Shown: positions 27,996 to 61,523, counted from the first letter of the whole stretch. The stretch: 63,727 bases of DNA, filler included, from Kipferlia bialata (GCA_003568945.1; 7 parts of 5 records of this genome joined end to end with filler, not necessarily neighbours in it), one strand, 5' to 3'. Notes: generated by a model from the sequence alone, not told the origin. Made by a program: numbers and translations.

Positions 27996-30019
27996 TCAGA
28001 ACTCTGCCACTGGGCTGGATGAGAGGTTGGGACTGGCGTTCTTTGACCTGAGCCGCCTCTTGTCCCCGGCCTTGGCCCTCCGCCTTGGGGGACCCCTGCC
28101 CTCCTCGATGGCTATGACGGCCTGGGGGTGAGACAGGTTGTCAAATTGATATATATGCTATCTCAGACACCCCATGTAGCATACATATATGTGGGATAGT
28201 ACATATCCATCAGTCCCCACCTCGACAGGTACCACGACATGCTCCGCGTCTGTGTACACCCCCCTGAGCCCTGACACCAGGTACATACCCAGCGCCCCAA
28301 CCGCACACAGACACACATATGCAGTGGGTCCCTCTGCCAGAAGGGAGGCAGGGGTGGAGTCCTCAAACACAGCAAGAAGGGCAGAGAGGGGGTCGGAGAA
28401 GGGGTTCAGCAGCAGCTGGGGCAGCACGAAGGCTAGCATAAAGTGGGCAGAGGTGAGGGAACACCTGAGTGTGAGGAGGTGGCATGATTGACTACAATGT
28501 GTGTACAGTATAACCACTCTAATGCTCGCTACCTGTTTGTCCATGGCATGGACTTGGGTCCCCTCTGTCCAGCTGGTACAGACACTGATAGTCTGTGTAG
28601 GACAAGCAGGGATGCCAGTACCATCAGAGAGGCAGGCAGGGTGCAGACAGCCACTAGGCCAAGGGGGTGTGACACCTTATCAGTGACGTCATCCCAGAAG
28701 GCACCCAGGGACACACTCACCAGCACAGAGAGGAGGAGCAGAAGCTGGGGTCAGGGTAGGGGGGGGGGGAGAGAGAGAGAGTAATGGAACATATACAAAT
28801 ACCAATGAACAACTATGAGTGTAAGTTGTATGGCATCTATGCAATCACCACCGTACCTGTGTGAATGCCGTCGAGTGCTTGAGACAGGGTGCCAGGAGCA
28901 GCAAGGGGAGAGAGAGGGCACCAGCACAGAGGAAGGGGACAGCCCCCAGACCATAGGGCCGGTACTCAGCCAATGGAGAGACAGAGGGGGCCTGGAGTGA
29001 GGGTCAAACGAAGGCTGGAAGTGTCTACTACTATAGACCGACCCACCTCAGGGTATACGATGAGCTCTGCCGCCACTGTACCCATGAGAGAGGCCAGTGT
29101 CACACCGGTGCCTAGGAGCAGGCCAGTCAGGATGTACCTAGGGTGGGGGAGTGGTAGCACTCTTCACTCCTGCAATATACACTATGATACATGCATATAC
29201 AAGATGGCTATATACCTTCTGACTGCCGGGTAGTGCTTGAGCTTCTTGCTCAGAGGGGCCTTGCACCGTCTGGGGGTGGATATGAGTACAAGGGTGAGGC
29301 CCAAGAGTGCCACCACACCTGCTACCATCCAGACCTGGGGTGAGAGGAAGGAGAGAGAGAGAGAGAGTAGTTCTACACCAAAGCCGCTTGATGCCGGTGG
29401 CAATATAGAGTGACACTCACCTCAAATGCATCTATGGCAGCTGGCAGCACAATGACTTCCTGCAGATCCACAAGAGTGTAGAGAAGCCACCTGCGGTGAG
29501 AAAGGATCACGTTGAGACATTCACAACGCATTGTACATGTATGTTACCACCGTACCATACCACAGGTGCTGATGCCACCAGCATACATACATATACATAT
29601 ATATAATTGTCTCTCAGGAATCCTGAGTCAGGATATGTAGACACCGTACCACACCACAGGTGCCGAGGCCACCAGCATGTATCCCATGCCCCCTAGGGTA
29701 TCAGCGAGGGCACGCTTGGTGCCGGGGTCGAGCTTGGTCTTGCTACGCCTGCGGGTTAGACACTATATAACCTTATACTCGAACATGGATGAATCTATAG
29801 CCCGAGTGTACCTGAGCATGAGGTAGAACACTGGGGACACCCCGACCAGGGGCAGTGTCAGCAGACATGGCCAGAGGTACTGGGTGTCTGGGCCGAGGTA
29901 TGATGGGACGTCGATGTCAGGCAGGATAGTGTCAATGACAACCTGGACCACGGTAGATACACCCACACAGAGCAGAGAGAGGGTACACAGCATGAAGAGC
30001 ATGGCAGCCAGTCTCACAC
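27996..30019 (-). CDS. Hypothetical multi-pass membrane protein (5' truncated)
   Basis: Consecutive exons encode many hydrophobic helices (e.g. 'LAAMLFMLCTLSLLCVGVSTVVQVVI', 'YILTGLLLGTGVTLASLMG'). The basic tail ends '...PVAEF*' at 27996. Confidence 0.6.
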
Positions 30020-30329
30020 CTAGGGGGTCAGAGAGAGAGAGAGAGAGAGAGTCAGAGAGAGAGAGTGGGGAGGGGGGGGGGGGGGGGGGGGGGGGGGCCC
30101 GCCAGGGGCGGNNNNNNNNNNNNNNNNNNNNNNNNNNNNNNNNNNNNNNNNNNNNTTAATTAATTAANNNNNNNNNNNNNNNNNNNNNNNNNNNNNNNNN
30201 NNNNNNNNNNNATGTATGTGTATAATATGATGGGGATACCCTCTTTCCCCCCCCCCCCCTTTCCCGCCTGTTCTCTTCAGTGGTATCTCTGGCCCACCCC
30301 TCCATTTTACTGTATCTCTCTTATGTCAG

Positions 30330-31792
30330 GTTTACAGCACCCCACAGCGTATCAGAGTGGACCCCCGGCACAAGGTATCAGTATCATTTTCTCTATAGTA
30401 TATATATGTGTATAGTATATATGTGTATATAATATATATGTATATATTGTATATGTATATGGAGTATATTGATATATTAGATTGGTTATATTCATTGATC
30501 CCAGGGCAGACCTGGAGACAGGCCTAGCATCAACATGCTTGGAACCACACGAGGAACCAGGTATTCACACACACACACATATATATATATATATGAGTTT
30601 CCAGTCATACTTATTGACCATCCCTGACTCTCCCTTCTCTCTTGACCATGTCTGACTCTTAGGGGCTCTCAGAGTGCCAGGGGATACTCCTCCAGACACC
30701 AGAGCGGGGGTGGCCTCTATGCAACATCGGAGGTACATATGTAAATATATATATATATATATATATATTATTATTATTATTGTGTCTCTTCTGGTGTTCC
30801 ATCTGAATATGATTATATTGTATGTATATGTATATATATATATATACTCTATGCCACATCGGAGGTACATATGTTTTGTATATTATATTGTATGTATATG
30901 TATATGATTATGTGTCTACTGGTGTTCGTCTTTATATATATCTTATGTTTTCTACCCTTGTCACCCTCTGTATCTGCCTCTTTTATATTTAATTAGATAT
31001 GCTATGCTTGGCTTCTTTGGGTTATTATTCTGTGTTCAATATCTCTTATCCCCCAGGCATCTAGACCATACTCTGCACGGCCTAGCCAAAGGGGCATTAG
31101 GGGTGTAGGTGTAGGACACTCCTCAACTGAGGGAGCTGAGGGAGTCGACATACGCCCTTCAACGGCCAGACCTGCGGGGTCCTCTCTCACCTCCATGTCT
31201 CTCTCTCTCTTTGGAGAGGAAGAGAGAGGGGCTCAGGAGGAGAGGGGGGTGGATCTGCCGTCCAATATGTTTGGAAGCAGTAAGAGGGGGGACGGGGGGA
31301 GTGGGATGTATAGTAGCAGAGTTGATGCCGGGAGAGAGGGAGAGAGAGAGGGAGAGGGAGAGAGGCCGTTGGTGGAGAGTGCGCGTCGGCTGTCGGTCAT
31401 TGAGTCTCTGACGCGGTCTCTGACCACGGATCAGGAGTGGGGAGGGGAGGGAGAGGAGAGGGGGGAAGGGAGGGAGGGGGAGAGCAGGGGTAGTAGCTGG
31501 CACGACAGTGGGCGTCCAATGGAAGATAGGTATAGGCCAGACACAGCAAGGGAGAGAGGGAAGGAGAGAGAGCCCGAGAGGCGGCGCAACCGGAGTGCCA
31601 GTGTGGACCAGTCTCTATTCAGGTGGGTGATATAGAGTTTGTCTCTCTCTCTCTCTCTCTTGTGATGGTACTCTCTCTCTCATTGTCAGTGTCATTAGTG
31701 TATGTATATGTATGTATGTCAACTGACTGTCAGGGCCTCTGGTATCTATGCCGGTACAAGGAGGAGACGCAATCCAGTCACGTTTACAGCCA
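30330..31792 (+). CDS. Hypothetical low-complexity Arg/Glu/Ser-rich protein fragment
   Basis: Short GC-rich exons lie in AT-rich introns, and a large exon at ~31057-31622 contains the 146-aa ORF. Ends are uncertain. Confidence 0.4.
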
Positions 31793-32257
31793 GGTAATTT
31801 TTACTGTGTTTGATGTACATATTAGAGTAACCCTGCATAGCACTGCATTGTGTTCCTGTAATCCTAGTCTTGCTGGCAGAGACTTCAACATGTATAGAGT
31901 TTTGTGTATGGCTACACAGTTCTTGCTCAATGCTAACCTGCAGGAAACGCGCCACGCGCCCTGGGGTTCTGTCACTTCACACCGCACAGAGGGCGAGAGA
32001 GCGCCTCCGGTGATTGTATAATAGATGAAACGATAGTTCATAAGTCTTTTCTAGGCCTAGTACCATGTTTTCTCTATGCATACCATCAATCTCGAATCTA
32101 TTACATTCATCCACACACACGCTTCACACAAGACACTACTACTGCTACAACCACATGTCCTCATCCCCCAAACACGTATACCCTGTAAGACCATCACATC
32201 TAGTCATTACCAGGGACCATGTTATGATTATATACCGTACAGTCTGGATGCACTCAC

Positions 32258-33485
32258 ACCCTCGTCCGTGCTCATGTTGACGTGGTATGGGTCGTCATCC
32301 CCACTGCTGCTCAGGTTATCGACATCGGTGGCAGTCTCCGCAAGCTCGGCCTGAGAGGTCAATGGAGGTCAAGGGAGGTCAAGGATAAAAGGAAATTCAT
32401 ATATGGACTCATACCTCAGCCCTCTCTCTCAGTCTCTTCTGCCTGAGTCTGTCGGCCTCTCTCCTTGCTGCAGTCTCTCTCTCTCTCTCTCTCTCTTCCT
32501 CGAGCCTTCTCTCTCCCTGCTCAAACCTGGACAGTTAGAGTGTGACCCTGATATATCTATATCTATATATCTATATGTCTATCAATCAATATCTAGTTAT
32601 CAAGTTTCTATATCTATATTAATCTGGAACAACATATCGCCGTTATGAGCTCTCTGTATATATGTAATTACTGGTTATACTACTGTGTACCAGGTCCTGA
32701 TGTCTGTACCATATCATAATCATACACGATATCACTGGTTATTCTACTCTATACAATATCAGTATCTGTATCACACTCAGAGGTGTTCAAACTCTCCATC
32801 TATACACTGATACTGTCACTAACTAATACCTGGTCCTGATGTCTGAGACCGATCCCCGACCACTGTCAATCTCCACTGGCTCACTGGTCCTCCTCTCTCT
32901 CTCTCTCTCTCTCTCCTGTCTAGGTGGATACGCACTGGACTCAGGAGTGAAGTCACCCGAGGCCCTGCTTCTGCTGCGTTGGGAGAACTCGTCATTCAGA
33001 GCGGCAAGCTTGCCCTAAGGGTCAGAATATATATATATATATATCCTGTATATATAGAGCAGTATGTTTGCCCTGGAAGTAAAATGTAACTCTCTAATAC
33101 GAGTACAATATCCAAATGTATATAAAGGGATGTTGCGAAAACTCGTCGTTGAGAGCGGCAAGCTTGCCCTACGGGTCAGTGGAAGCAAATATATATATAT
33201 AGTATATACACATAGATAGATGGCGCGACGTCCCATACCCACGATCCATCAAGATGTGAATAGGTTATAACAGTCTGTTTTAGCACCAAGACATCCCGTA
33301 CCTCTGTGAAAATATTAGTCAATGAATTGAAAACACATAAATATCCAATACATACATGTAGTCTATCATACCTGACTGAATGAGCTGAACAGGGTGGACT
33401 GCCCCCTGCCTGTGCTCTGGGTGGTGGTCTCTAGGGAGTTGAGCCACCTGGACAGCATCTGGAGATAAGTGATGGCACTTACGGA

Positions 33486-33526
<41 letters not shown>

Positions 33527-36445
33527 GAGTTGAGCCACCTGGACAGCATATATAGGGTAAGTGGCAATCAACAAACCAATAGATACCTTTCCAGATTCCT
33601 CTCCTAATTATAATCAACCCATCAATCAATTGATACCTTTGATGCCTCTCATAATAATTACAATCAATCTTCAACCAACCAATCATCAATCAACTGATAC
33701 CTTTGATGCCTCGAGGTTCCTCTCACAGTAATAACAATCTTATCAAGCAATCAATTGATTTGATTGACACTGTATCTATACTGTACTTATACTGTATCCA
33801 TACCTTTGATGCCTCCAGGTTCCTCTCAGACACTATGCACTCGGTGCCACTCTTCTTGTCTGCCTCAGCCACAGTCTGCACACTGGTCCTGGCATCAGAG
33901 TGTATATAGATAGTGGGATAAATAGCCATCGATATATCACTATATATAACTATATAGATTCATACGCCACAGTCTGCAGACTGGCCCTGGTATCAGTATT
34001 AGAATATTAGTGAATATACATGTATGTATACAAATATACCTGTAACACTTGTACTCTCATTCTAAGACAAATAAAAACTGATGGAGGGAATATAGGATAC
34101 AGGAGAGAGAGAGAGAAGAGGAAGATCAGTTGCAAATACAATATATTATACAGTTATCGTGAGCAACTTAAACATGCTTCCACACCTGAAGCCCATGAAT
34201 AGGAACCCCACACATAGTATATCTATTATTAATAGAGTATGTATATATATCATGTATAGGATATACGCATGTACCTGAATCCCATGAATAGGAACACCAT
34301 ACTGTCTGCGGCATCAGGGACCTGGTGGTAAGGGTAGATCAATACAATTGTATATATATAGATCAATACATATATATATATATATATGTACATACTCATA
34401 CTGTCTGCGGCATCAGAGACCTGGTGGTGAGCAAAGAAGCGGAGTGAAGAGAATACTCATAGATATACACCCGTATACATACTCATCCTATCTGCGGCGT
34501 CAGGGACCAATTGGTGAGGGTAGATCAACACACACATACATATAGATTAGAATTAATAGAGATGTACACCCATATGCAACTATAGATACTATAATACTAT
34601 AATACTATATTATATATACACATATATACACACCTCGAGGACTGATGCCATGGATGATTGAATTAATGAAAGAGAAGAAATACATGAATATACATGAATA
34701 TACAAAGATACTATATTCATAAATGTGTACATATATACACATATATACCCACCTCGAGGACTGATGCCATGGATGATGCCCGGGAGTGTGAGTGGGAGTG
34801 GGCCTGGTCGGTGAGGGACAGTAGGGTAAGGCATATACATATGTACACCCACATATACATATACATATACGTATATATACATATACCTTAATACTACCAT
34901 GCCGGAGGACTAAAGTAAGGCAAGGCATATACATATGTATATATATAAACATATATATACAAACTCATGAATGTAAATTAGAAATATATACCTTGTCGGA
35001 TAGGGATGCGTCCCTCACTGCATCCAGGGCATCGATGGAGACATATATATATGACATATATAACAATTATATTTATATATATACACATGTAAATATGTAC
35101 CTTGTCGGAGAGAGAGAGAGATGCATCCCTCACTGCATCCAGGGCATCGATGGAGAGAGAGAGCTCGGCTAGCAGCACGTCGCTCTTGTAGTTGGTCTTC
35201 TCCTTGCGTAGCCACAGCTGGTGTTAGAAGTAGGATAGAAGTATGTTAGAAGTATGCTAGAAGTAGGATAGAAGTAGGATGGAAGTATGTTAGAAATGGG
35301 TTAGAAGGCTAAACATTAGAAGCCAGAGAGACTCACACAGTAAGTACAAACACGATACCAAGACGTCGCACTCCCTGGTCATCAGCACCATTAGAAACAA
35401 TAGAGTAAGTATAGTGTCAATATATAGTACTATTATATATAGTAACTATACTATAGTATATCATTATCTGCATATACCTTCACATCGCACTCTCTGGCCA
35501 TCAGCAGTATTAATATATAGTAGCTATACATAATATGATACTCCTATTCATAATAATACTATATAATTAATATATATGCTAATTCATATACATATATATA
35601 TATAGTACCTTCACATCGCACTCCCTGGCCATCAGCACCATTAGTAACAATAAAGTAAGTATAGTGTAAATACACATATATTAGTGATGCATACGTGTAT
35701 AATACAATACCTTCACATCGCACTCCCTGGCCATCAGCACTGCCTTGGTGGATGTTGAGACATTGGCATTCTTCTTGGTGGTGTGGATGTCACCCAGGGT
35801 CACGGGGGCGGTAGGGACTGGAGTGAGACAGGTAAAATAGAGAGAGAGAGAGATAGAGAGAGAGAAATTATATTCACCCAGGGTCACGGGGGGGGTAGGA
35901 ACTGGAGTGAGACATACATAAGGGCATCGAGGAGGAAACATACTTGAGAGAGAGATTCAATGAATGTCCCGGAGGGTCACATGGGCGGAGGGCGAGAATG
36001 TGGCGAGAATTACAATGAGTTACTAGAATGTACAAGCTGATATATGCAGAGGTACCGTACCCTCTGCCACCTCCACGGCCTCTGTCCTCAGCAGCTGTCT
36101 GTCGTCACCTCCAAGGTGCACACTCAGGTGCAGGTAGTGCAGACCCTGGGGTTAGTCAGTTAGAGGATATATATATCAATCTACGCTATACTATTAGTAT
36201 ATCAGTAATGTGCACACTCAGGTGCAGGAAGTGTAGGCCCTAACGAATTAGAAAAGAATGTGAATTGATTGAAATAGAAATTATAGTGGAAGCCCAACAA
36301 GGCATATTTATATACATATATATATATATAACATATGGTACCTTGTCGTGTGCTGCCTTCCACTTTGTGGCCACAGAGTCCTTGCCAGCTGGGCCTGGGG
36401 TCAGGGTACTACTATATACACTATGTGACTATTAATTCTGACTAG

Positions 36446-36476
<31 letters not shown>

Positions 36477-37232
36477 TCCCATTGATTCCATACCTGATGC
36501 CTTGGGTGCCGTACAGTCATTATATATAGAATAGACATCATACAATATGGTACTATACATAAACGGATACTATACTAATAATGAAATATTTGTATACATT
36601 AGAAATATATTATAATACGTATCATGCCATACCTGATGCCTTGAGTGCCGCACAGTCAGATATATACTATATAGTATATACTACTATTATAATGTACCAC
36701 CCTATAAAATACATATCATGTCATTGATACCAATACCATTGATACCTGATGCCTTGAGGGCGGCACAGTCAGATGTACACTATACTCTCTCTCTCTGTCT
36801 ATACATATATATATATATTCATGTCTATACCTGATGCCTTGAGGGCGGCACAGTCCACCTCCACGGCATCAAGGTGCTTGACCTGGGCCTGGGGGTGAGT
36901 GTGGTATATATGTAATACGTAAGTTTATAATAATAGTCTGGAAGCCCTTCAATGGCATGATATATCACATATGGACGGAGGGAAGGGATCTCAGGTACAG
37001 TAGAAACAACGATAGTGCACGCTGTAGTACATATTGTACCTTTGTCTTTAGGAATGTGGATATGGTGCTGGGGGAAACACATAAATACATTACAGTATCA
37101 TATAGTTATCAATATCCATAACTATACACACAGCGCATAATGCGCGATAATACATCATATAGCATGCCTACCTTTGTCTTTAGGAATGTGGATATGGTGC
37201 TGGGTGTGACACTGGACAGCAGGGAGGGGAGC
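32258..37232 (-). CDS. Hypothetical protein, ~15 short exons in long AT-rich, echo-containing introns
   Basis: GC-rich exons with canonical junctions, e.g. 'AQVKHLDAVEVDCAALKAS', 'KAVLMARECDVK', 'LWLRKEKTNYKSDVLLAELSLSIDALDAVRDAS', 'ECIVSERNLEASK'. Both ends are uncertain. Confidence 0.6.
35225..35323. repeat. 11-bp tandem minisatellite (TAGAAGTAGGA / TAGAAGTATGT)
   Basis: About 8 degenerate units abut a minus-strand acceptor. Confidence 0.8.
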
Positions 37233-38090
37233 CTGGGGTGAGTCAATCATATATACCACTTAGAGAGGGGAGCCTATGGTGAGGAGATACACATCTAACT
37301 AAGGGCACTAGGGAGACAGAGAGAGAGAGAGAGATGACACTGGACAGCAGGGAGGGGAGCCTGGGGTAAGTATTAAGCATATATAATAATAACTAATGTA
37401 ACATTAACAAACTGGAGAGGGAGAGAGAGAGATCGGTCAGAGGACAATTGATATATATATATATATATATATATATCAATTGAGTGAGGGGGGGGGGAGA
37501 GGGAGAGAGAGAGAGATCAGACAGTGGAGAGAGGTGAGCCTATTGTCAGGGGGGGGGGGGGGGGGGGAAAAAAAAAAACAAANNNNNNNNNNNNNNNNNN
37601 NNNNNNNNNNNNNNNNNNNNNNNNNNTTAATTAATTAANNNNNNNNNNNNNNNNNNNNNNNNNNNNNNNNNNNNNNNNNNNNGGCACAGCGTCAGCAGAG
37701 GCAGGCTCGGCGGCAGATAGAGTGTGGCTGGTGGGGGGGGTGGGGGGGGGGGGGGGGGGGTCTCAATATCATAGCCTGAGTATTGATATCACTATTCTAC
37801 TCAATTGTGTCCTGCCAGTGTTAGTGTCTGTCTCTGTATCATACAGAGTGAGATGACACTGAGTACACGGATCACCCTCTTGCCCTCCCATTCTCTCTCT
37901 CTCTCACTCCCAGGTGTGTCTGAGGCCACTGTTGCTATTGTTACTATTGTTCTTAAGTACACAAGTATATACAATTAATTCATTGAGTCTTCTCACGCCA
38001 GGTGTGTCATTGGCTACATGTGCTGTTGTAGCTCTTATTATTTACGTTGTGTATATACTGGTAGTATACTATATAGTGTCTCACCCCCAG

Positions 38091-40078
38091 GTGTGTCCGA
38101 GGCCACTGTCGTTGTTGTATGCCAGAGGCTGATGCAGACAATGCAGGTAGACAGACACACAAATATATTCTAGTGTATGAGTACATCATATATATGAGTC
38201 CACCAGGCACTAGGGGGGGGGGGGGGAGCTCATATTTCCGGTTCTCACCTATTGAGGTTCGATATCTCTATATCGTTGTATATTCTACCACTTTCCCCTC
38301 TCACCCCAGGAGCAGGCTGCCCAGACTGTCAAGCTGTATAATAATATGTATTATAGTATATGTTTTATACACATATATACTAGTGTATGAGTACATCATA
38401 TATCTCACCCCAGGAGCAGGCTGCCCAGACTGAGACTGTCAAGACATTCTCAGCACTGTTCTCAACACTTGCAGACCAGGTAAATGTGTTATTTGTTCTT
38501 ACTATTTGAATGCTTGAGTATTCCTCATTTCACTTGGCTAGTATATTATGTGTTTATGTTTCTCAGTCTCACCCACTACAGTATCCCAATGTATTTGAAT
38601 ATTGTATCCTACTATATAGCCTCACCCTCAGTTCGATGCCCCCGGTGACAGACACAACACACCCCTGGAGATGGTGGCATTTGTGTGTCTAGGTAAGGGA
38701 TGAGTGCTCAAGCGTATACTTCCACCCCTTGAGAGGAAATTCTACATGTATGATTATATGTTTATGTATTCATATGTATATTCATATACATTAGTAAAGA
38801 TTCAACACACCACTGGAGATGGTGGCATTTGTGTGTCTAGGTAAGAGAATATGTGTACCTCTTGGTACTAGGAGGATACCAATTTGAATACATTTTGTAT
38901 GTGTGTATTTCTCTTACACACCCCTGGAGATGGTGGCATTTGTGTGTCTAGGTAGGAGAATATACATATTTGTGTGTGTCTAAGAAGGAGGATACCAATT
39001 ATATATACATATATGTCGTGTTGTAGCCTCTAAGTCTTAGTAGTTCAACACGGAAACATGCTTCTAACCATGGGTAGGTATAATATCTTTCAACTTATTT
39101 TTCTCATCCATAGGCATTGTGCCCCAGCTGCCATCGGTATCAATATATGTATATAGATTAATATATATATATATTTATCTTTTCTATTAGTCCAACACGG
39201 ACACATGCTCACCCCTAGGCATTGTGCCCCGGTACTATTTCTTTCACATTATATACTCATCCATAGGCATTGTGCCCCAGCTGCCATCGGTGGCATCAAA
39301 CGTCAGAGAGGTAAGAGTATATTGTGGTAGAGTTCGATAATGATTCAATGGAAGGTTGCTTTAGCTATATAATGTTAAATATGTCCCCACCATATGCCAT
39401 GATGGTTGCTCTACATACATTGCTGAATGTTCTGTTCCAGTCACATCTCTCTCTCTCTATATCTATGCATCTGTATCTGAACTCAGGCTATGATGGCTGT
39501 CCTCCACACCCTCCTCAATGGCCTGTTCCAGTCACCCTCTAGAGAGACTAGGGAGGGAGAGAGAGAGGGGGAGGGAGAGGGAGAGACACAGGCCATCACC
39601 CTCCACGCAGACTCGAGAGAAGTACTGACTGCATGCATGCCAGGTATATTTACCTATACATTGTATATATAGTAAAAATAGTATACATAGTATAAACTGA
39701 TAATAAGTAAATAGTATATATAGTATTCATTTAGTATATATGCAGACTCGAGAGAAGTACTGACTGCATGCATGCCAGGTATGAATGCATTAATATTTAA
39801 TTGCAGTGCATGTTTAATATATTAATATGCATGTAGATATATGTACTCGAGAGAGGTTCTTACAGCTTGCATGCCAGGTATGAATGACTAGTAGAGAGAG
39901 TGTGTGTAAATCGTAACTACATATGTCTGTGTGTGTGTGAAGTGATTCATATGTGAAGTGCTGTCAGCGTGCTAGGTAAACTGTATGTATCTCATCTCTC
40001 ATTAGCAAGACCTGTTATTGGATCTCTCCGTCTTTCTCTTTAGCTAGACTCTTACTGTCAGGTCTAGTTGCTGCCCTT

Positions 40079-40120
<42 letters not shown>

Positions 40121-40157
40121 AGCTAGACTCTTACTGTCAGGTCTAGTTGCTGCCCGT

Positions 40158-40197
<40 letters not shown>

Positions 40198-43100
40198 AGC
40201 TACACTCTTATCGTCAGGTCTAGTTGCTGCCCTTCTCTCCATATCCGATGGCGAGAGTGAGGGCAAGGAGTACAGTGCTAGGTATGCATGAGTTGTTATA
40301 TAACATAAATTATAGTATATTTTTCATTTCATCGACCCCACGAGATCCCTGCGGACCAAGCTCATGCCTTTGCATAGCATTTGTATATTTCCCGTATATA
40401 TATATCCCCTTTCCCTAACACACTAGGTCCATGCTGACCAGGCTCATGGCCGCATGACTATACTCCGAGTATATATTATTATATATTCATACATACATAT
40501 ATATATCAACACTAACCCACTAGGTCCATGCTGACCAAGCTCATGGCTGCATGACTATTCTTTATTAATATACTAAGGGTATACATATATATTCATATAT
40601 ATATATATATAGTACTAACCCACTAGGTCCATGCTGACCAAGCTCATGGCTGCATGACTATTCAAAATTTACTATACATAGGGTATATGTATATACTCTG
40701 TATTCTGAACTATATATATCAACACTAACCCAGGTCCATGCTGACCAAGCTCATGGTTACATGACTATTCCTTATCACTATACTAAGCGTATACATATAT
40801 ACTCTATGCGTATACATATATACTCTATGGTCTTTATCAATCAAATAATACTAACCCCTTAGGTCCATGCTGACCAAGCTCATGGCCGCATCCCCATCGG
40901 CTTTCTTTGCATCAGTCTTCAAGGGTAAGTGTAGTGTATATATATTATTGTAGTAATTGTAGTAGTCAATATTTTTCTTATGCGTGTCGATGGTTTCCTA
41001 TATCGGCATTCTTTGCATCAGTCTTCAAGGGTATGAAGATGGGTTACAGTACATCGATATTGTCACTTATTGCGTACGGGTGAATCTAAGATATACTCTA
41101 GCTGACGGGTTGTCTGCATGGATACGTCTCACCCTATCTGAGTATAAGTATTTTTACATACATTTACCTATCCCATCCCACCCCAGGTCTCAACAGCCCC
41201 ACCGGCAGGGTCTCTGCTGCAAAGACCATTGTGGAGCAGGTGGGTGGGATACCTTATTATACAAGTCTTCTTTCGAAGCTACTACATCTCATATCCCCAT
41301 ATTGCCCCCCCCCCCCCCCCCCCCCTCCCCCCCCCCCCCCCCTCCCCCCCNNNNNNNNNNNNNNNNNNNNNNNNNNNNNNNNNNNNNNNNNNNNNNNNNN
41401 NNNNNNNNNNNNNNNNNNNNNNNNNNNNNNNNNNNNNNNNNNNNNNNNNNNNNNNNNNNNNNNNNNNNNNNNNNNNNNNNNNNNNNNNNNNNNNNNNNNN
41501 NNNNNNNNNNNNNNNNNNNNNNNNNNNNNNTTAGTGAATCATATATAGGGCAAGGGGAATACGCCCCCCCCCTCCCCCCCTCCTAAACGGTTCACACTCT
41601 TCCTCTTATGCACCAACTCCTCCATATTATCCCCCTCATTGTATGTACCCCTCTCTCCTCTTCTGACCCTGTTACTCTGCTTGTTTATATGTGTCTACCC
41701 TTGACCCTAGGCGGAAGAAGCCGTCTCTCTTCCTGCAAAGGAGACAGAAGGAGAGGGAGAGAGCAGCTGAGATGGCTGAGATGAGGAAGGTATGTTATGT
41801 TGTATGTATGCTCACTATTGTGAAAACTATTGTATACTGAATATATTTTTGTATTTACATTCAGCTGTTATATAGTAATAAATATATTCACCCATAGGTC
41901 ATTGCCGCAGACATGCCAAGTGAGAGAAACCTACCTGTTGGAGAGCCAACCATAGAGGAGATGGTCAGGAAGGCACAGGTATATTGGTATATACATATAC
42001 ATTCTTCTCTCAATGTAGTAATGTATAGAAGATATAATCAGAAAGGCACAGGTACAGACCGTGTTCGATCTATTTGTGTTCTACAGAACGCTTATAACTG
42101 GATATACATTTGTATTAGTTTGTGTTTGTATGTACTGTCTTGTGACATCAACCATGTCTCACCCCCTAGGTCCTAGAGGCCCAGAAGAAGAAGGAAGAGG
42201 ACTTGGCCAGGTACAGTATATACTCATATAAATATAACTATATGTATAAATATCATATTCGGCTATATGTAATTGCCCCGTATAGAATGTCAAGTATTGA
42301 GGGAGCTTCTCTCTCTTTCCCCCTTCTCTCGCTATCACTATGTTCCATCAAGGACCTTCCTCAATTTCTCTCTCCTTCTGTCTCTGTATATATGTTTCAA
42401 TTCTCTTACCCCTAGGTTTCGCGAGTCTGTCTAGGACCTACCTCTATTACTCTCTCCTTCTCTTTGGCGTATTATATATTCGTGCAATTACTCTTACCCT
42501 AGGTTCCGCGAGTCTGTCAAGGACCTAGTGGGCGATGCCTCATCCATTGAGCAGGGGTACCTGCCCCCTGCTGTTACTGCCCCTCCCCCTATCCCTAGTG
42601 TACCTAGTGGACCTACTGTGCCCAAGCCCCCTGTACAGGAGAGAGAGAGAGAGACTGATGCCCAGACATCCTCTGCTGATGCAGACTCCCTCCTCTTCTC
42701 TCTCTCTGGGTCCATCCTCCACCCAGACTCCCAGCAGGTATAGTGATACACGGCATATATATATTTATGCAGGTATGATACAGTTCAATATGGTATATAT
42801 ATAATGTATTAGAGTTCATAGTATATATGTCATTATTTCAGTACACCCATACTCCCAGCAGGTATGATATGTACCATATACTATATATGCTATGTATTAT
42901 TATTGTTAGAAGTACTTTCATAATAGTTACAGTACAAGATTATGTTTACACTATATTATGAATTACCTCACTCTTCTGATCATGCTCTTTCCCCAGGTTC
43001 TGGATGGCCTTGCTGTCTCTCTCCCCACCCTGTCCCGTCTGGTCCAGTCTGCATACACCCCACAGCGGACACAGGCTCTGTCACTGGCATCTGTGGTGAC

Positions 43101-46100
43101 CACAACAGCTAGGTATATACCTTTATGTATACATATATACTGTAACTGTATCTGTATTATACCCCAGAGGACACATGCTCTGTCACTGGCATCTGTGGTC
43201 ACATCCACTGCCAGGTAGAATATATGAATTACACATTATACATAATGTATAGTATTTAGTCCCTGATGCTGTCATTTACTGTAGAACAGGTGGCTGTTGT
43301 ATCAGTAGCAGTGATATTCTGAACAGTGTAATACATGCCATATATTGATTGTAGTGATCAGTAGTATATATATATGGATCCTTGCTGTAGTATATATATA
43401 TTGCTCCTTGCTTGGTCTTCATTCATACCAGGACCAGTGGATATGGCAGATGTTATGGACAAGTGTAACAGCGGCATTATTCATTTAGATACATAGCGTT
43501 TCACACTGCTTGCCAATACCATATTGACCCCAGGACCGGTGGCTATGGCAGCAGGAGCAGTGATGTCCTGGACAGTGTCACCACCAGTGTGCTCATACCC
43601 ACTGTGCAGAGCAGTGCGTCTGCCAGCACACAGGGCAGGATACACAACGCTAGGTATATATATATATGTGTAAATACTCTTAAGTGTAAGTGTTCTCTAG
43701 GGTTAGGTAGTGCATCTGCCGGTACTCAGGGCAGAATTCACAACGCTAGGTATGCATACATTCATATACTCTTAAGTGTATATGTTCTTAGGGTAGGGTA
43801 GTGCATCTGCCAGTACACAGGGCAGGATACATAACGCTAGGTATGGATTCATATATATACATAGGGCACAACACAGTCTATATATATACATACAATAGTA
43901 CATGAGTTAATAATATATCAACCATGTTCTTATTGTCAGGTTCCTCATTGGCGCCCTCCCCGACCCCGCTCTTCCCCTGCAGTGCCTGCTGCTCTCCCAG
44001 CTCTCTCTCTCTGCCCTTTCTTCTAAGGGTCCAGAAAAGAGGGTGCAGTACCCCACCCCAGTCCCCCCCTCCCACCCTGCACCCCTGTCACTCCTGCAGG
44101 CACTCCTCTGCAACCAGGTACAATGCATGTATATATATATATATATTCATTGCTTTATATATATATATACATGTCCCACACTTCACCCCTCTCCCTACTG
44201 TAGGCACTGCTCTGCAACCAGGTACTCTATGGATTCGTATACACATACTAATTCATACATATACATAACATATATACATAAATATCCCACCCGCCTCTCC
44301 TCATGAAGGTCCAGCAGGCCCCCATGCTGTCTCTCTCTCTCTCTTCTTCCTTGTAACACACTCTCTTCTCATTATTTAGGTCCAGCAGGCCCCCATGCTG
44401 TCTCTGTGCCAGGCCGAGCCAGAGCTCTATGCCAGGCTGAGTGCTGTGGCAGGCTCAATCGACACAGACACCGTCAAGGGTATGATGTGTATGAGTTAAT
44501 CACTTGTTCATGTGTCAACTACAGTGTAGTAGTGTCACGGCGACGGTCATTAGACCTATTATCTATGTATACCATTTACTATATGTATACCTTTCTTACC
44601 CTAGGCCCGACAGTGACCACACCCGGCACTGGGTGTAACTGTATTATACTATCTCCTAACATATACATGTATAAATGTATATATATATATATATATAATA
44701 CTCACTAACATTAGGCCCGGACAGTGACCACACCCGGCACTGGGTGGTGGAGGCAGTCAGAGACAGGCTGGACTCTCTGTCAGCATTCCTCTCAAGGTAT
44801 ATATACATTGATTTAATATATTAGTTATGGCATTCCTCTCAAGGTATATATATTGTAAAAATGTGTTGAGTATATTTCAATATACTCCCGCCGGCCCTCT
44901 TTTGCCCTCTAAGGATACCCTCTTTACTGCTTGCGTATTGTCTTGACCTTGATGTTTGCCTTGTTTACTGTATTGTATTATTTGTATTGTTCACTCATAC
45001 CCAGGTCTGTGCAGGCCATATATAACATATATGTATATAATATACATATATCTACCTATTCTCTCTCTACTAATACCCAGGTCTGTGCAGGCCAAATATG
45101 TCATATGTATGTATTATGTATTTTATGTATATATTTCTTATCCATACTTGTACATATTCTATTCTTATACCCAGGTCTGTGCAAAAGTATTGATCCTCCT
45201 ATACCGAGTACATAGTGATATGTAATATACATTCTAATAATCAGGTCTGTGCAGGCCAAGCAGGACAGACAGGCAGGGCCAGGGGACACTCAGACACTGC
45301 AGGTGAGTTCTAATACACTGATATATACTCTATCATTGAGTAAATCTGGTTCCGTAGTTATCGTTAATGTATTGACACCCAGATCTCCGAGTCCGTTGTG
45401 AGTGAGCTAGCCTGGCTCCTCCGGTCTGCCTCTCTCCTCCTGTCCCAGAGGGTGCCCACTCATGAGTCACTGGTGCTTACTGTCCTAGGCCTAGTGGGCA
45501 CACTGCTAGAGGTTGGTTCACTGTGTATGAAAATTAGTGGTGTTATTATTGTTTCTTCCAGATACTCTTCCCTGTTTCCATGTACCATACACTTACCCCA
45601 GGTCATCTCCGATGGGTCTGTGGGTGATGACACCCCAGCCGGTGCCTCCCTCTCTCTGTCTCTCTGCCGCGATGCTGCTCTGGCCCTCTCTGTCTGTAGG
45701 GGTGTAGTACCCACACTCTCCACAGTAGAGCAGGGGGAGAGAGACACACAGAGTGAGAGCAGCCTCCTTGTTGTCTCTCAGGGTGTCCTCCAGTCCTTGG
45801 TCTCTCTCTCCATTCAGCACATGGGGCGCTCTCTCTCCCTCCCCTCCCCTATTGTCCTGCAGACATGCTGCATGTCGGTTGGTGCACTCTACCCCCTGCT
45901 AGACCCTTCTGCCAGAGATTCTTTGGCAGCTGAGGCACTACCTACCCTGCTCAAGCACGTTAAGAGAGAGAGAGAGGAGGAGGATGGTGGAGAGAGACTT
46001 GCCCCTTGCATGGAGGCACTGTTACTATGTGCCACACTGTATAGGGACACTGTGACCTCTGATGCTCTGGATGCCATGCTCTATGTCTCACAGTGGGAGA

Positions 46101-48005
46101 GGGACCTCGCACTCACACTCTCGGGGGCACCGGCTGTGGCATCACCACACGCACACTACAAGGAGGTACCATATGTTGACGTGATCATATCCTCGTTTCT
46201 GTCCTCTCTATGCCAATATTTCTCTCTTTACTACATAATTGCATATATATATATATGTGTGTGTGTGTTCCTCTCACATTCAGGTCCCTAGCGCACTTGA
46301 GACCTCTGCCCTCCTCTCCCTTGTGAGGAGTCTCATGAACAGGGGGGCAGAGGGGGCAGAGCTGACAGACCTTGCTGCACTACCCCCTGTACTCCTTCAG
46401 CCCATACTGCTGGGCATGCCCATCCACCAGGCACTCTCCATGCCGGCACCACTCTCACTGTGCCCCATATTGGCACAGAGGTATGCATATTTATACCTAT
46501 GTACTATACTCTGTATCTGTATACTTTACCTATATATATATCCTCATACTGACCCATACTGGCACAGAGGTATACATGTATATGTATATATAGCCATATA
46601 ATGGGTCATATGAATCTCTCTCTCTACCTCTCTCTGTCCCACTATCAACACAATGGGTCTAGACCTAGTCAGACTCTATCTCGTCTCACTCTCAGGTACA
46701 TCGTTGAGAACGAGGCCACTTTGGTAGAGCAGGGTCTCCCCCTCACCCTCCTTCCCCTCATGCGCGACAGTCTCTCTCTCTCCCTCCCCCACGTAGCCGA
46801 GTCCTCCCACATCACTGTCCCCCCTATGTCTGGGAGGTACGCACCCCTAGTGGCTGCTGTGCCGCCTAGAGAGACTGGGGGTACACCCGAGGAGTGTGCA
46901 CAGAGCGATACAGTCACCCTGGGGCTCCTCTGTGTCGCTCTGATTGGCCTTCAGAGCAGTACCTCGCGGGTTTCAGTCTCTGCGCGTTCCTACGCGGTTG
47001 ACGCTCTTGCGCTTATCTTTGCTGTGGCCAACCAGGCTTTAGAGGACTCAGATACCCTCATTGTGACCTTTGAGAGGATAGCGAGTGCCACTGTGGATAG
47101 CATATCCAGCATCACTGTAGACCCCTCTGCCCCTTCCACTGGGTTCCCCTCTGTCACACTCTGCAACACCACATACACACCTGTGGGGTGCATACAGCTG
47201 CTGGGTGCCAGCATGAGGACCTGTGGCTGGTGTGTGCCTGACCACCTCTTGTCTTCATGTCTTTCTCTCCTGCTGGCATCACCTGTAGTCGATGTGAGGG
47301 CCGAGGCATGGTCTCTGTACCTGTCTGAGTGCATAGTGGTCAAGGGCCGGGATGCTCTGGCTGCCACAGCGGGACTGGAGGTGGAGAGAGAGTACAAGGT
47401 AAATATAGTATATATATGTGGGTTCTCTCCCTATATAACACATATGGTACAATAGTATGTAAAAGAGTGATAACAACAGGTCATCTCTGCCATTGTATCT
47501 GCCCTGGATGCCATGGTTAAGAGTGTATATATACCATTAATATATGATATATATACATCCCTTACCCTAGGTTATTAGTGCCATTGTATCTGCCCTGGAT
47601 GCGATGGTCTGCAATGGAAGGGCACCAGCACGCAGGATGCCGTTTGTGGTGGCAGCAGCCAGATACCTTCTTAGGTAGAATTGTATATGCAATTTATTAT
47701 ACTTCTCTTACTGATCTACTCCATGGTTATCCTACAGTGAGGTATTTGTATGATTATGTATATGTGAAATATAATAATCTATCCTGACCCATCAGGTGCA
47801 GCCAGGAACAGGGTGGCAAGGCCATTATCAGATATATTACTTGTATGTATATTATGGGTATATATACTAATATATATATTTGTATATCACATATACATAT
47901 ACTATTAACCCTAGGTGCAGTGAGGCCCAGGGTGGCATGGCCATTGTCATGAGGTGTGGGGGTGACATGGACCTGTACACAGCACTCGCAGCAAAGGAGC
48001 TCTAA
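38091..48005 (+). CDS. Large hypothetical alpha-helical (ARM/HEAT-like) protein, >25 exons, spans the N gap 41351-41530, 5' truncated
   Basis: Leu/Ala/Ser-rich helical exons (ORFs 45398-46291, 46601-47455) plus many short exons. Ends '...DMDLYTALAAKEL*' at TAA 48003-48005. Continuity across the N gap is assumed. Confidence 0.6.
41351..41530. other. Scaffold gap (180 N); second gap at 48910-49074 (165 N)
   Basis: N runs without linker, next to poly-C/poly-G tracts. Confidence 0.95.
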
Positions 48006-49080
48006 CCAGTAATTCCAATAGAGTCACGTATAGTCTGATTCATACACTGATGCTGTTCTCAGCATTATTTTTCGCAGCAAAGGAGCTGTAAAGGAGCTGT
48101 AAAGCTGCATCCTGCAGGTATGATACACGAAGATTCTCCCAATAGACCCTCACGCATTTACATGAGATAGATCGTTCCACTCCCCATATCAGAAAGTCAA
48201 TATGATTGCATCACTCAAATCAATACAGCTGATCATATTGGCGTTTTGATTGTCAAACGCCATATACGGTTGAGTCCAATGCCTAATCTCGCGCTGTCTC
48301 TTCCTTCATCTAGACCATCTAGTCTTGGTGTTTCAACAATAGATGCAGAAGAACCTTGGCACAGCGTGTCTGGCCACTGCGTGTCTGGCCGGTGCCACCA
48401 TTGTATACACCCTGCTGACGTCATTCATATTCAGGTGAATACATGTATATCCAAATACCCTCTCCTGTTCCCTGCATTGACATCCACCTGCCACTTCTCC
48501 CTTACAGCTAATTGTACATCATATATATATGATATCTATATCTATATGATATCATATATATGATATACATCATTGTGACTGTGTCTCCACATTCCTGACC
48601 CCCCCCTCCCCTTCCCTCCCTATTTAAGACATCACCTAGCCAAATGTCATTCTCTCTCCCTAATGACAGCTGGGAAGGCTACCTCCCCACCATCTCCGTT
48701 GCTGCCCTCTCCCCCAATGCCACGCACGTGTACTGCTGGGGCCTATCAACAAGGTATGCATACTCATGTACACCATATATCCCTTACAGAGTTCCCAATA
48801 ATGCCCCACATATACTGGTGGGGCCTGGTATCAGGTCTCTCTCTCTCTCTCTCTCTCTCCCCCCCCCCCTTCCCCCCACCTCTCTCTCCATACATTTCTC
48901 ACACGTACANNNNNNNNNNNNNNNNNNNNNNNNNNNNNNNNNNNNNNNNNNNNNNNNNNNNNNNNNNNNNNNNNNNNNNNNNNNNNNNNNNNNNNNNNNN
49001 NNNNNNNNNNNNNNNNNNNNNNNNNNNNNNNNNNNNNNNNNNNNNNNNNNNNNNNNNNNNNNNNNNNNNNNNNNCCCGCG

Positions 49081-52100: not shown

Positions 52101-53384
52101 GACCGTCTATACCACAACCAGCTGTACCTTGACCATGGTTGTGATTGTGAAGATGCAGTGGCTTCTGGAGGAGTTGGTGTTCATGAGAGTGGAGGCTGGG
52201 GGTGAGAGATATGGATATGTAGAGACACCAATATGAAGGGACATATATATACACTCCCTCAGTACCTGTTGTCCTGTGGGCACTGCTCTTCTGCAGCAGA
52301 GACAGCACGTCATCACTGCACATCACAGGCACCTCCTGGGGGGTCAGACATATATATCTACGCGACACAGACAGTCACATCAATAGGCACCCATTGCATA
52401 TATATACACACCTGGAGGTTGTGTACTGTGATCTGCTTTCCCTTGTTGTACTTGTCCTCAAAGATGCGGAGGGGGAGGTCGGTGCCAGGCTCGGCAAGGA
52501 GATCGTGGAGGTCCTCATTGTAGACCTGGGGTTGGTAAGGTAAGGAGAGAGGGACTATTTCGATACACATTGATAGAGAGGATGGAGAGCCACACTAATA
52601 CACACTCCACCCACCTCGAGATGGGACACCTTCATCGTGTAGTCACACCCACTGTTCTCAAGGACATCAAAGATCTCCATGACAGCCCTGGGGGTGGGAT
52701 CACTGGTAGATGCAGCATATATCATAGAGAGGGGGGGTAGGGAAGAGAACAGAAAATATGGTATAACATACACACACATTGACACACCTTGGGATGACTC
52801 CGCTGGTCTCTGGCAGGGGTGACCCTGGGACGACGGAGGATAGAGAGCCTGGGGGCCCCTCCATGGTGAAGGTCTTGCCTGGGGTAAGTGGAAGAAGGGG
52901 TGAATAGTGAAGACAGAGAGATAATGAAAAGGTGAGTGCAGCAGAAGCGTACCTGTTCCTGTCTGACCGTATGCAAACACAGTGCAGTTGAACCCCTTGA
53001 GGAACTCCTGAACAGTGCTGGAGAGGACGTGCTTATAGAAGTGGGCCTGGTCTGGGGGTAAGGGGAATCCATGTATGTAGAATAATAATATACAGAAGAA
53101 CTACTTTACATGTATTCATGTTATGATAGAATATATGGGTCTAGTATCATATGTCAAGTGAGAGGGGGGGGGGGGTACGAGTGATGAGTAGGAATGAGAG
53201 GTACTGCAATAGGAACTGAAGTGTATAGACTAGGAAAGTATTGCACACCTCTTTGGCTGTGACACAATCATCACATCGTACAATACATACACTACACTAC
53301 ATGTGTAAACTCCTGTATCATATCTACCCACCTGTGGCAGGACCGAACACCTGGTCGAAGCTGAACTTACGGGTGCTGCCATCA
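49178..53384 (-). CDS. KIF11: Kinesin-5 (BimC/Eg5) motor and stalk, multi-exon, 3' truncated
   Basis: '[10 protein letters not shown]', '[22 protein letters not shown]', '[12 protein letters not shown]', '[12 protein letters not shown]', '[21 protein letters not shown]', '[20 protein letters not shown]', '[22 protein letters not shown]'. The kinesin-5 neck '[12 protein letters not shown]' and 'REKNGTY' are present. Confidence 0.93.
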
Positions 53385-53475
53385 CTGGGGGGTGAGAGGG
53401 GGAGGGAGGGGGGGGGGGGGGGGGGGGGATGGTATGTAGAGAGAGAGAGACAGGGATACATATATTAAGCCGCAC

Positions 53476-59509: not shown

Positions 59510-60113
59510 GGGGGGGAGGGGGAACGGGGAANNNNNNNNNNNNNNNNNNNNNNNNNNNNNNNNNNNNNNNNNNNNTTAATTAATTAANNNNNNNNNNNNN
59601 NNNNNNNNNNNNNNNNNNNNNNNNNNNNNNNCCCCCCCCCCCCCCCCCCCCCCTCCCTCTCCCCCCCCCCCCCCCCCTTCTCTCTTTCTGTGCTAGACTC
59701 TCTCTCTATATGTCGACTGTGAGTGGGAGAGAGCCTGGTACTCCCCCCTCCCACCTTTCTCTCTTCCGTCTCTATGTCTGTATGCTGACTAGGCCTACTG
59801 TCTCTGTCTATCTCCCCTTCTCTTCTTCTCTTCACCTCTATGCTCTTCTTTACACATCTCTCTCTCTCCCCATACTAATATGTGTGTGTATATACACGTA
59901 TGTATTGCTGCTGATCCTTCCGTGTACTTGTCCCAGTAACTGGGCTGTTCTGTGCGTATATTGTGTTCTCTCGTCTCATATATGGATAGTGAATATAGTG
60001 TATATACACGCCTTAGTTTCTCTATCTAACCATAGGTCAAAGGACCTGGGACGTGCATTACCATTATCTGTCTCTCTCTCCATCCCTCTGTCTCTCTCTC
60101 TATCTAACCATAG

Positions 60114-60512
60114 GTCCAAGGACCTGGGTGAGAAGAGGAAGGGAGGGGCAGCACAGAGGACAGGTATGGATACATATATGTATATATATGTATTAATATA
60201 TACTATATACTACATAGTGTATGTGTGTATGAGCGGAAGGGAGGGGCAGCACAGAGGACAGGTATATATACTAATATAGTGTATATTCTGTACTGCTATT
60301 GTTCATTTATGGTTCACATATGTGTACGTTATAAGTGATATAATATAAAGAGGAAGGGAGGGGCTGCACAGAGAACAGGTATGGATACTATGTAATATAA
60401 TATAGTGTATGTATACTCTATATGGTATACATGTGTGTGTATGGGGGGGAAGGGAAGGGCAGCACAGATAACAGGTTCTTATACTATGTAGTGTAATCGG
60501 ACTCTATGGTGA

Positions 60513-60553
<41 letters not shown>

Positions 60554-61117
60554 TGGAGGGAGGGGCAGCACAGAGAACAGGTATACAATATGTACTATCT
60601 AGTGAAATATTTGTACATGTTGTGGTATAGTAGTGGCTGATTCATGTGTGTGGATACTGACTGTGTTTGTCTGATAGTCTCTCTCTCTCTCCCTCTACAC
60701 CCTTATTCCCAGTGAGTGGTGCTGAGCAGGCCAAGACCACCAAGTCATACAGCTGCAGGATATGCGGCAGGTCTCTGCCTGGGAAGGCCAGGTACTATAC
60801 ACTCTACTCTATATATATGCCCGACGATTCTAAGTACTGTACCATCCGAGGTGTATGGACATATAGTATAGTATAGTATGTATATAATATGTATATATGG
60901 GATATTATAGTGTATGACTGAGGGATACTAATCCTGATGCAGAATATGCGGCAGGTCTCTGCCTGGGAAGGCCAGGTACTAGAGATACTCTATATACTCT
61001 ACATTTACATACTACTCTATATGTATATGAGTATAGCTGCAGGATATGCGGCAGGTCTCTGCCTGGGAAGGCTAGGTACTACAGGAACTCTACCCTATAT
61101 ATATGTATATATGAATT

Positions 61118-61166
<49 letters not shown>

Positions 61167-61523
61167 TCTATATATATACTCTGTGTATATGCCTGGCAAG
61201 GCTAGGTACCCTACCATCCGTATTGTATCTGTATGGACAAATATAGTATATATTCTATAGTTGCAGTATATGCGGCAGGTCTCTGCCTGGCAAGGCTAGG
61301 TATATATTTTATATATATTATGTGGGATGGGATGGGATATTAAGTATTGTATAATGCATTCCATGTGCCTACAGTGGTACTCTTCCCTCTCTCTCTCTCT
61401 CTCTCTCCCTCTACACCCCTTAATACCAGGTACTGTCAGCAGTGTGCCTACAGTGGGGGCGTGTGTAACATGTGTGGTAGGGCCATCAGTGGAGATGCCA
61501 TGAAGCTGAGGAGGAATAGATAG
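60114..61523 (+). CDS. CRIPT: CRIPT (cysteine-rich PDZ-binding protein); exons 60114-60163, 60713-60791, 61430-61523; 5' exon not identified
   Basis: The spliced product 'SKDLGEKRKGGAAQRT/VSGAEQAKTTKSYSCRICGRSLPGKA/RYCQQCAYSGGVCNMCGRAI..*' matches the CRIPT CxxC..YCQxCAYxxGxCxMCG pattern. Confidence 0.88.

Follow-up and report, generated by a model that had tools for sequence, protein, structure and literature searches.

Introns of Kipferlia bialata genes hold mirage-like serial copies of neighbouring exon edges that differ mainly at silent sites and retain splice signals

Tandem copies of exon-intron boundaries are described in amphioxus as "mirages", at Adh3, the globins BflGb6 and BflGb9, troponin C and PGBD5 (PMC3087553, PMC3902484). 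As these sources present them, the units measure 10-160 bp, lie on either side of an exon, carry AG or GT and leave splicing undisturbed; their origin is called "unclear" in PMC3087553. A related arrangement, the 37-bp variable number tandem repeat (VNTR) in intron 7 of human F7, has a first unit that spans the boundary and functional downstream pseudo-donors that stay silent, the most upstream donor being used (PMC1557585). We analyzed a stretch of 63,727 nt (the window) from Kipferlia bialata, a free-living anaerobic flagellate (fornicate, metamonad); the window is intron-rich eukaryotic sequence in pieces separated by gaps, and all counts cover it alone. Most introns of the affected genes hold skipped spare copies of the neighbouring exon edge together with its splice signal. 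We call these intronic direct copies echoes. The pattern is real and non-random. A preliminary description, made from the sequence alone, knew of no account of it; for the layout this was wrong, the same arrangement having been published as amphioxus mirages (PMC3087553, PMC3902484). The layout is thus already known, and what is new is the protist host, the density and the function-preserving divergence.

As in mirages, the echoes are direct tandem duplications spanning the exon-intron boundary, on the 5' as well as the 3' side of exons, and carry AG/GT; splicing is normal, being undisturbed in the five introns of gene C that RNA contigs cross (majority form, one sample). Amphioxus BflGb6 units are reported as 81-100% identical with concerted evolution, whereas in K. 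bialata the exonic part is 92% identical and the intronic part mostly unalignable. The echoes are therefore a mirage-like variant and not plain mirages, since they fail whole-unit similarity. Particular to K. bialata are the silent-biased differences, splice signals that differ yet keep their strength, the presence in three quarters of affected-gene introns, and the metamonad host. The main text of PMC3087553, supplements aside, yielded no synonymous or silent-site analysis of mirages, and literature searches, which covered neither the original Adh3 paper nor Gao and Lynch 2009, returned no description of the pattern in Kipferlia or of silent-biased mirages.

In a self-BLAST of the window, 103 direct pairs lay less than 600 bp from each other, and apart from two weak ones they fell in 29.5-48.1 kb or 59-61.3 kb; local inverted pairs numbered 4. 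Six hand-built gene models were searched with a detector that starts from exon edges and takes no account of frame or of GT/AG, and it found 67 echoes, 58 of them at 41 exon edges in the 29.5-48.1 kb span and 9 in gene E (60-61.5 kb); among mismatched exon-intron pairs, used as a chance control, 1 of 962 gave a copy. All 14 sets of coordinates in the preliminary description coincide with local direct repeats within a few bases by self-BLAST and detector, and its figure of at least 30 places, in direct orientation and usually with the splice site copied, compares with the 58 echoes at 41 edges. Exon ends are copied downstream only and exon starts upstream only, with wrong-side copies in none of 43 introns. 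Echoes occur in 32 of these 43 introns and in 0 of 94 introns of eight other models, a contrast that measures clustering by gene and not a rate, the affected genes having been picked for showing repeats. The control structures came from our own dynamic programme and were predicted without RNA; one model (g21k) was excluded as unreliable. Intron GC is 0.30-0.37 in the affected genes (gene D excepted, 0.46) and 0.42-0.51 in the others. Echo length is 12-53 nt (65 copies) and does not exceed 49 nt even where the exon has 157-235 nt; the units measure 47-184 nt (median 102). The spacers of 33-149 nt, none shorter, have a median of 74 nt, close to the 79.5 nt of control introns. A single exon edge has up to five distinct echoes, and 12 of 23 neighbouring copies have a common outer boundary. 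Two chance mini-exons lie inside echoes (37067-37040 and 44204-44221), the latter skipped in RNA.

The differences between echo and exon are predominantly silent. Two copies with indel-broken register (35006, 44604) were excluded before substitutions were counted, and the remaining 65 copies gave silent:replacing differences of 99:51 (unique alleles 87:51; strict count 96:54); the two wrong frames gave 25:125 and 13:137. The ratio of replacing to silent differences per site (pN/pS) was 0.17-0.30 across eight mutation models (worst p 0.003), where the floor for a neutral copy is 0.5, and 0.11-0.24 in a bootstrap over 42 junctions with unweighted sites, 0 of 5000 replicates reaching 0.5. It stayed below 0.5 in all six gene models and on both donor and acceptor sides, with the strongest bias in gene E (15:3). 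A neutral copy set against an exon under constraint cannot give a value under 0.5. In forward simulation, trimmed in the same way, the silent fraction came to 0.45 ± 0.05 vs 0.66 observed (0 of 300 reached it). The preliminary description had held that the silent bias exceeds neutral decay and had proposed pooling the silent fraction against a neutral-copy simulation; run on the window, that comparison leaves the bias standing. Neutral decay of a same-chromosome duplicate cannot give it.

The replacing changes look like later decay. Stops account for 3 of 50 changed codons, and the amino-acid changes are near random (BLOSUM -0.19 vs -0.48 for random; sd 1.54, n=47). Between paired copies the distal one is more diverged in 25 cases, less in 7 and tied in 5, counts that are not independent. 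Differences private to one echo run 24:19 silent:replacing; changes that arose in the exon after one copy formed and before the next also enter this count, which is therefore no stronger than the main test. Indels in the gapped alignments (6, 6, 3, 2, 1 plus 11, and 6 nt) are too few and too edge-bound for a frame-bias test. GC-biased conversion in the exon left no specific signal, the strong-to-weak direction being similar among silent (44:19) and replacing (28:13) differences.

The flanks behave differently from the exonic part: 92% identity to the working junction in the latter, 38% in the intronic flank (null 31%). Flanks align beyond chance in 5 of 65 echoes and in 1 of 9 perfect copies of at least 20 nt, and their scores fall below simulation in 64 of 65 at 8% divergence and in 53 of 65 at 22%, in a test that has little power on AT-rich DNA. 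Divergence of the flank is uncorrelated with that of the exonic part (rho 0.09), and neighbouring spacers are 33-90% identical with many gaps. The splice signals were kept. GT is present in 35 of 35 donor echoes and a purine at +3 in 34 of 35, although donors differ at 51% of positions +3 to +12; AG is kept in 26 of 29 acceptor echoes. Although 44% of positions -16 to -3 are changed in acceptor echoes, their score is 0.1; true acceptors score 2.0, other intronic AG -10.2 and simulated decay -5.4 (0 of 2000 reach the echoes), a simulation limited to substitutions, so that register shifts inflate the contrast. The true acceptor is stronger than the best echo in only 10 of 18 cases. Splice-site choice is not by strength, and given these 10 of 18 cases position probably decides. 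Codons and splice signals have thus both diverged in function-preserving ways. As in the F7 VNTR, the unit spans the boundary and the pseudo-donors are silent; F7, however, is one locus with identical pseudo-sites on the donor side only, whereas here echo sites differ from the authentic one (donors 51%, acceptors 44%) and there are also acceptor arrays, in which the last acceptor wins. Scanning from the donor fails to explain site use in K. bialata for that last reason. Recursive splicing, considered since many exons end in AG and start with GT, was ruled out: several of the acceptor echoes have GC or GA at their start, and no codon bias would be expected from it.

These observations bear on whether the echoes could be ordinary neutral mirages, arising by local tandem duplication and then decaying, with the silent excess coming from replacement of the exon by other alleles or from fast silent turnover. 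The layout matches published mirages, the array at 40062..40168 is a plain recent duplication, and the replacing changes look neutral. The exon would, however, have to change at silent sites 2.3-4.9 times as fast as the echo mutates; from a young local copy one would expect an alignable flank, but 64 of 65 fall below the expected level, and from an old copy the loss of splice signals, but GT is kept in 35 of 35. We consider this origin unlikely. Both the missing flanks and the surviving signals fit a junction of another allele that was in use until recently.

Contigs of two public sequencing runs were compared with the window over 37683-44900 (7.2 of 18.6 kb), so that the assembly is the sole source of sequence for gene C's 3' part and for genes A, B, D and E; the contigs give the majority form in one sample, and 16 of about 1000 pieces were listed. 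A DNA contig of 2507 nt, corresponding to 41564-44069, crosses eight echoes at a depth of 419 with one other letter and no gap; the DNA run may itself be the window's source, but this contig was nevertheless built separately. Seven other listed contigs have similar depth (310-469) and agree with the window. The DNA run showed one substitution and one insertion in the 7.2 kb (40731, 40771), both explicable by contigs from adjacent array units having been assigned to the wrong unit. Where an array has exact repeats of at least 31 nt the contigs break, and copy number there rests on the assembly. That the echoes are an artefact of merged haplotypes or strains has some appeal, in that the copies resemble alleles, k-mer peaks are reported to show a diploid species (PMC5874029), and short-read contigs are the only check; given the 2507-nt contig, the seven that agree with it and up to five distinct copies at one edge, we find it very improbable. 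The gene C protein has been deposited twice (P0001 and P0003, 100% identical), on contigs of 41,462 and 29,700 bases; set against a contig depth that suggests one copy, this is possibly assembly redundancy.

The second run (X2) is presumed to be RNA, although not recorded as such, and its contigs skip introns exactly. Two of them join the outer sites across five gene C introns, skipping nine echoes with no other letters: contig 10 passes over the echoes of 43162..43840, which lie inside the 2507-nt DNA contig, and contig 11 over 44174-44221, 44309-44334 and 44605-44635. Because these contigs join only outer sites, gene C is expressed with its echoes outside the majority transcript. If an echo site were used, the frame would be kept in 24 of 64, about chance, and an open in-frame extension would result in 6 of 64. 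These figures bear on a functional role as splice decoys or alternative exon ends, acting through spliceosome binding or in minor transcripts. Such a role would suit echo signals close in strength to true sites, the strong clustering by gene (32/43 vs 0/94 introns) and the lack of spacers below 33 nt, but it predicts neither the codon-level silent bias nor an echo at a stop codon, and the RNA contigs use only outer sites. We regard it as improbable, and the alternative exon-end cassettes of the preliminary description were not upheld by the outer-site use and the 6 of 64 open echo sites.

Our preferred reading, to which we give a probability of roughly 55%, is that each echo is a former working junction of a diverged allele, left in the intron by recombination between homologous chromosomes. 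Echoes would then most likely be a recombination by-product that records other alleles, and not a device. We infer exon-limited pairing, one-ended homologue copying near the exon edge, Ku-free rejoining, growth by mispairing and position-based site choice. Alleles would diverge fast in AT-rich introns and slowly in exons, leaving exons as the only sites where homologues pair. If a strand broke or switched template no more than about 50 nt from an exon edge, the other allele's edge would be copied with 30-150 nt of its intron; with too little homology to re-anneal, the strand would rejoin by a non-Ku route and the old edge would be pushed into the intron. Exon-to-echo mispairing between alleles could then add or remove units with the same outer boundary, a step needed because 12 of 23 neighbouring copies have a common boundary. 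Only layouts that keep one complete exon would survive. Across an exon, the acceptor and donor that lie nearest are likely the ones the spliceosome pairs, and the echoes would therefore be inert and decaying. Dmc1 tolerates mismatches. Fornicates are reported to lack Rad51A and to keep two Dmc1, and metamonads to lack Ku and DNA-PKcs (PMC8516963); if that source is right, the joining step is not classical non-homologous end joining (NHEJ). In favour of other-allele relics we count the silent bias, the retained signals, the unalignable flanks, the shortness of the copies, the intron-like spacers, and an echo at a stop codon (48072..48091), which has no splice site.

Several results weigh against this account. 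A second haplotype with an exon equal to the echo, which the preliminary description proposed to seek, was not found among DNA contigs over 37683-44900; a protein search confined to longer proteins gave just the identical P0001 (P0003 being 100% identical and P0002 unrelated), and two metagenome scans for a diverged donor were empty. At the outer echo edges neither AT enrichment nor microhomology was seen (the observed value is reached in 117 of 1000 simulations), the first-versus-last polarity is weak (8:4:2), and random breaks alone are insufficient for the shared outer boundaries of 12 of 23 neighbours. The 90% identical spacers of the array at 40062..40168 are those of an ordinary duplication, and the model leaves unexplained the 0 echoes in 42 introns of a gene about 1 kb beyond gene C. 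The low power of the flank test and the substitution-only acceptor simulation, given above, also count here, and outcrossing in K. bialata is not reported in the literature examined. Of the allele copying and end-joining already put forward in the preliminary description, the copying fits best and gains support from diverged-but-working splice signals; its donor haplotype was not found, and the joining is not classical NHEJ if Ku is absent.

The shared boundaries are also accounted for if old same-chromosome duplicates are kept in shape by exchange, conversion or pop-out deletion putting the echo into the exon and so purging replacing changes and broken sites. This covers together the conserved exonic part, the kept GT/AG and the decayed flanks, and differences found only in the nearer copy, the exon equalling the farther one, are 11 silent to 7 replacing (p 0.008 against 0.31). 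The 3 stops among 50 changed codons, the barely milder than random amino-acid changes and one echo with a 1-nt deletion speak against it, as does our reasoning that conversion alone gives a pN/pS near 1 unless swaps are frequent enough for selection; no inter-copy deletion junction appeared among the joints listed (15 of 31), in contigs that drop rare variants. We judge it unlikely, though the least so of the alternatives. The recombination pointers of the preliminary description thus survive as a possible route of array growth, and the ongoing selection attached to them is weakened by the stops, the frameshift and the near-random amino-acid changes.

The relic reading borrows its mispairing step from interallelic minisatellite conversion and synthesis-dependent strand annealing, in which non-reciprocal allele transfer builds variant-unit arrays (PMC2599865); minisatellites as described there are non-coding, GC-rich and homogeneous, without coding constraint or a tie to exon edges, unlike the echoes. 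Local duplications arise by one-sided invasion and microhomology-mediated break-induced replication, which use homology at one end and, at the other, microhomology or end-joining (PMC4888836); that source does not describe allele-derived exon edges left in introns, and no microhomology signal was found at the outer echo edges. Intron gain by tandem duplication creates new introns, whereas in K. bialata intron positions are unchanged and existing introns lengthen. Gao and Lynch 2009 reportedly treat internal gene duplication and such intron gain, with small intragenic duplications that include splice sites. A disease-causing identical duplication of 403 bp has the geometry of a donor echo, but its single copy wrecks splicing, while the K. 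bialata copies are short and tolerated. In silent-cassette variation systems, donor copies diversify the protein when swapped in; here the differences are mostly silent (99:51). Three other schemes were rejected. Mutually exclusive duplicated exons were ruled out, the copies holding one edge (12-53 nt) and not a whole exon; whole-exon duplication remnants were ruled out because wrong-side copies occur in 0 of 43 introns; and intron gain by tandem duplication should give intron ends that resemble the opposite exon about a duplicated AG|GT, but the same 0 of 43 was found.

Published mirages concern few loci. Here the echoes of one window run to dozens and carry a statistical signature, in that divergence at silent sites that also preserves splice signals, next to spacers that do not align, separates other-allele origin from local slippage. 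If this is true, a single locus that looks homozygous would give evidence of allele exchange in a free-living fornicate, and hence probably of sex or hybridisation. A further consequence would be that a reduced spliceosome, with 87 of 174 proteins according to PMC6679479, chooses sites by position across tiny exons although decoys are equally strong. More speculatively, and we hold this to be doubtful, homologue-templated repair lacking Ku and Rad51A may routinely swap exon edges between deeply diverged alleles and file the displaced edges in introns by age, so that introns lengthen and become a layered archive of lost alleles readable from one genome; the same process could be the source of mirages in highly polymorphic marine animals. 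In practical terms the echoes matter for gene prediction and repeat masking in the genome of K. bialata.

Table 1. Echoes and echo-bearing gene models by position in the window
Position (strand)	Feature	Differences from exon, remarks
29556..29584 (-)	Gene D (membrane-protein-like): donor echo of exon 29748-29650	3 silent, 0 replacing
30847..30864 (+)	Gene A: donor echo of exon 30663-30732	
32260..37232 (-)	Gene B, 13 modelled exons	one open frame with echoes skipped
32691-32706 (-)	Gene B, around exon 33014-32830: donor echo	
33132-33168 (-)	Gene B, around exon 33014-32830: acceptor echo	4 silent, 0 replacing
33524..33986 (-)	Gene B: acceptor echoes 33524-33549, 33966-33986; donor echoes 33701-33725, 33637-33648	
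near 33583-33613 (-)	Third donor echo, beside 33701-33725 and 33637-33648	weaker
34186..34658 (-)	Gene B: donor echoes 34186-34213, 34634-34658; acceptor echoes 34397-34420, 34484-34507 (exon 34321-34275)	
34992..35042 (-)	Donor echo	lacks in-frame 6-nt stretch of exon; excluded from substitution counts
35359..35638 (-)	Three donor echoes of exon 35817-35711	0, 1, 5, increasing with distance
35874..36239 (-)	Acceptor echoes 35874-35901, 36207-36239	
36494..36770 (-)	Three 25-nt donor echoes of exon 36888-36831	0, 2, 4, increasing with distance
37040..37360 (-)	Around exon 37232-37172: donor echo 37040-37080, acceptor echo 37335-37360	
38091..48005 (+)	Gene C, 24 exons	equals deposited K. bialata protein P0001 (1143 aa) except at sequence gap
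37914..38328 (+)	Acceptor echoes 37914-37941, 38310-38328	latter lacks in-frame 6 nt
38803..38951 (+)	Two donor echoes of exon 38632-38692	1 and 0; flanks unalignable to working intron start
39114..39444 (+)	Acceptor echoes 39114-39138, 39219-39230	
39396-39444 (+)	Acceptor-side echo	9 silent, 3 replacing; AG lost
39742..39877 (+)	Two donor echoes of exon 39487-39643	0 / 5 silent
40062..40168 (+)	Two acceptor echoes	spacers 90% identical; ordinary-looking recent tandem duplication
40345..40756 (+)	Five acceptor echoes of exon 40863-40924	
41002..42861 (+)	Single echoes 41002-41030, 42025-42051, 42416-42440, 42844-42861	
43162-43214 (+)	Donor echo	7 silent, 2 replacing
43285..43840 (+)	Acceptor echoes 43285-43329, 43432-43449; donor echoes 43709-43749, 43800-43840	
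44174..44843 (+)	Donor echoes 44174-44221, 44830-44843; acceptor echoes 44309-44334, 44605-44635	last has 1-nt deletion
45005..45095 (+)	Two short acceptor echoes of exon 45245-45302	weaker third near 45175
46550..47830 (+)	Donor echo 46550-46569; acceptor echo 47796-47830	
47480-47517 (+)	Acceptor echo	5 silent, including a two-base Ser-to-Ser codon swap
48072..48091 (+)	Echo of last codons and stop codon in 3' flank	coding/non-coding edge without splice site
60036..61299 (+)	Gene E, small Cys-rich gene: nine echoes at three edges	15 silent, 3 replacing

Genes A, B, D and E each form one open frame when the repeats are skipped, and in gene B the 12 introns have echoes at 8 donor and 6 acceptor sides. 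The long exon of gene C (46697-47398) matches P0001 at 100%; the only family lead for this gene is HEAT/BRAT1-like (Atlas), with low shared-feature counts, and Pfam gave a confident family for none of genes A, C and D. The translation of gene E presumably resembles CRIPT, with no Pfam hit on one 25-aa exon, and given that resemblance conserved genes may carry echoes too. A short stretch that resembles the beginning of the exon at 58918 occurs twice at 59050-59160 (-). The echo-free gene, about 1 kb and one gap beyond gene C, has 43 exons (49178-56469, -), none of its 42 introns holding an echo; we take it to be kinesin-like from its motifs, with no Pfam hit on one 40-aa exon.

Gaps of 100 bp with a central all-frame-stop linker lie at 25172, 30112, 37583, 56532, 59532 and 61982; genes stop abruptly at several of them, and adjacency across those gaps is uncertain. 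An intronless open reading frame of 1516 aa at 15601-20148 (-), with no Pfam family, is unusual in a genome so intron-dense and is possibly a transferred or mobile gene. A nearly intronless gene at 8041-11826 (+) has pentapeptide repeats (PF00805, E 5.9e-42) in its second exon. Several exons of genes A, B and C contain (GA)n and (CT)n runs, translated as ERERE and SLSLS tracts, and one echo that lacks 6 nt of such a run suggests in-frame microsatellite growth in the exon.

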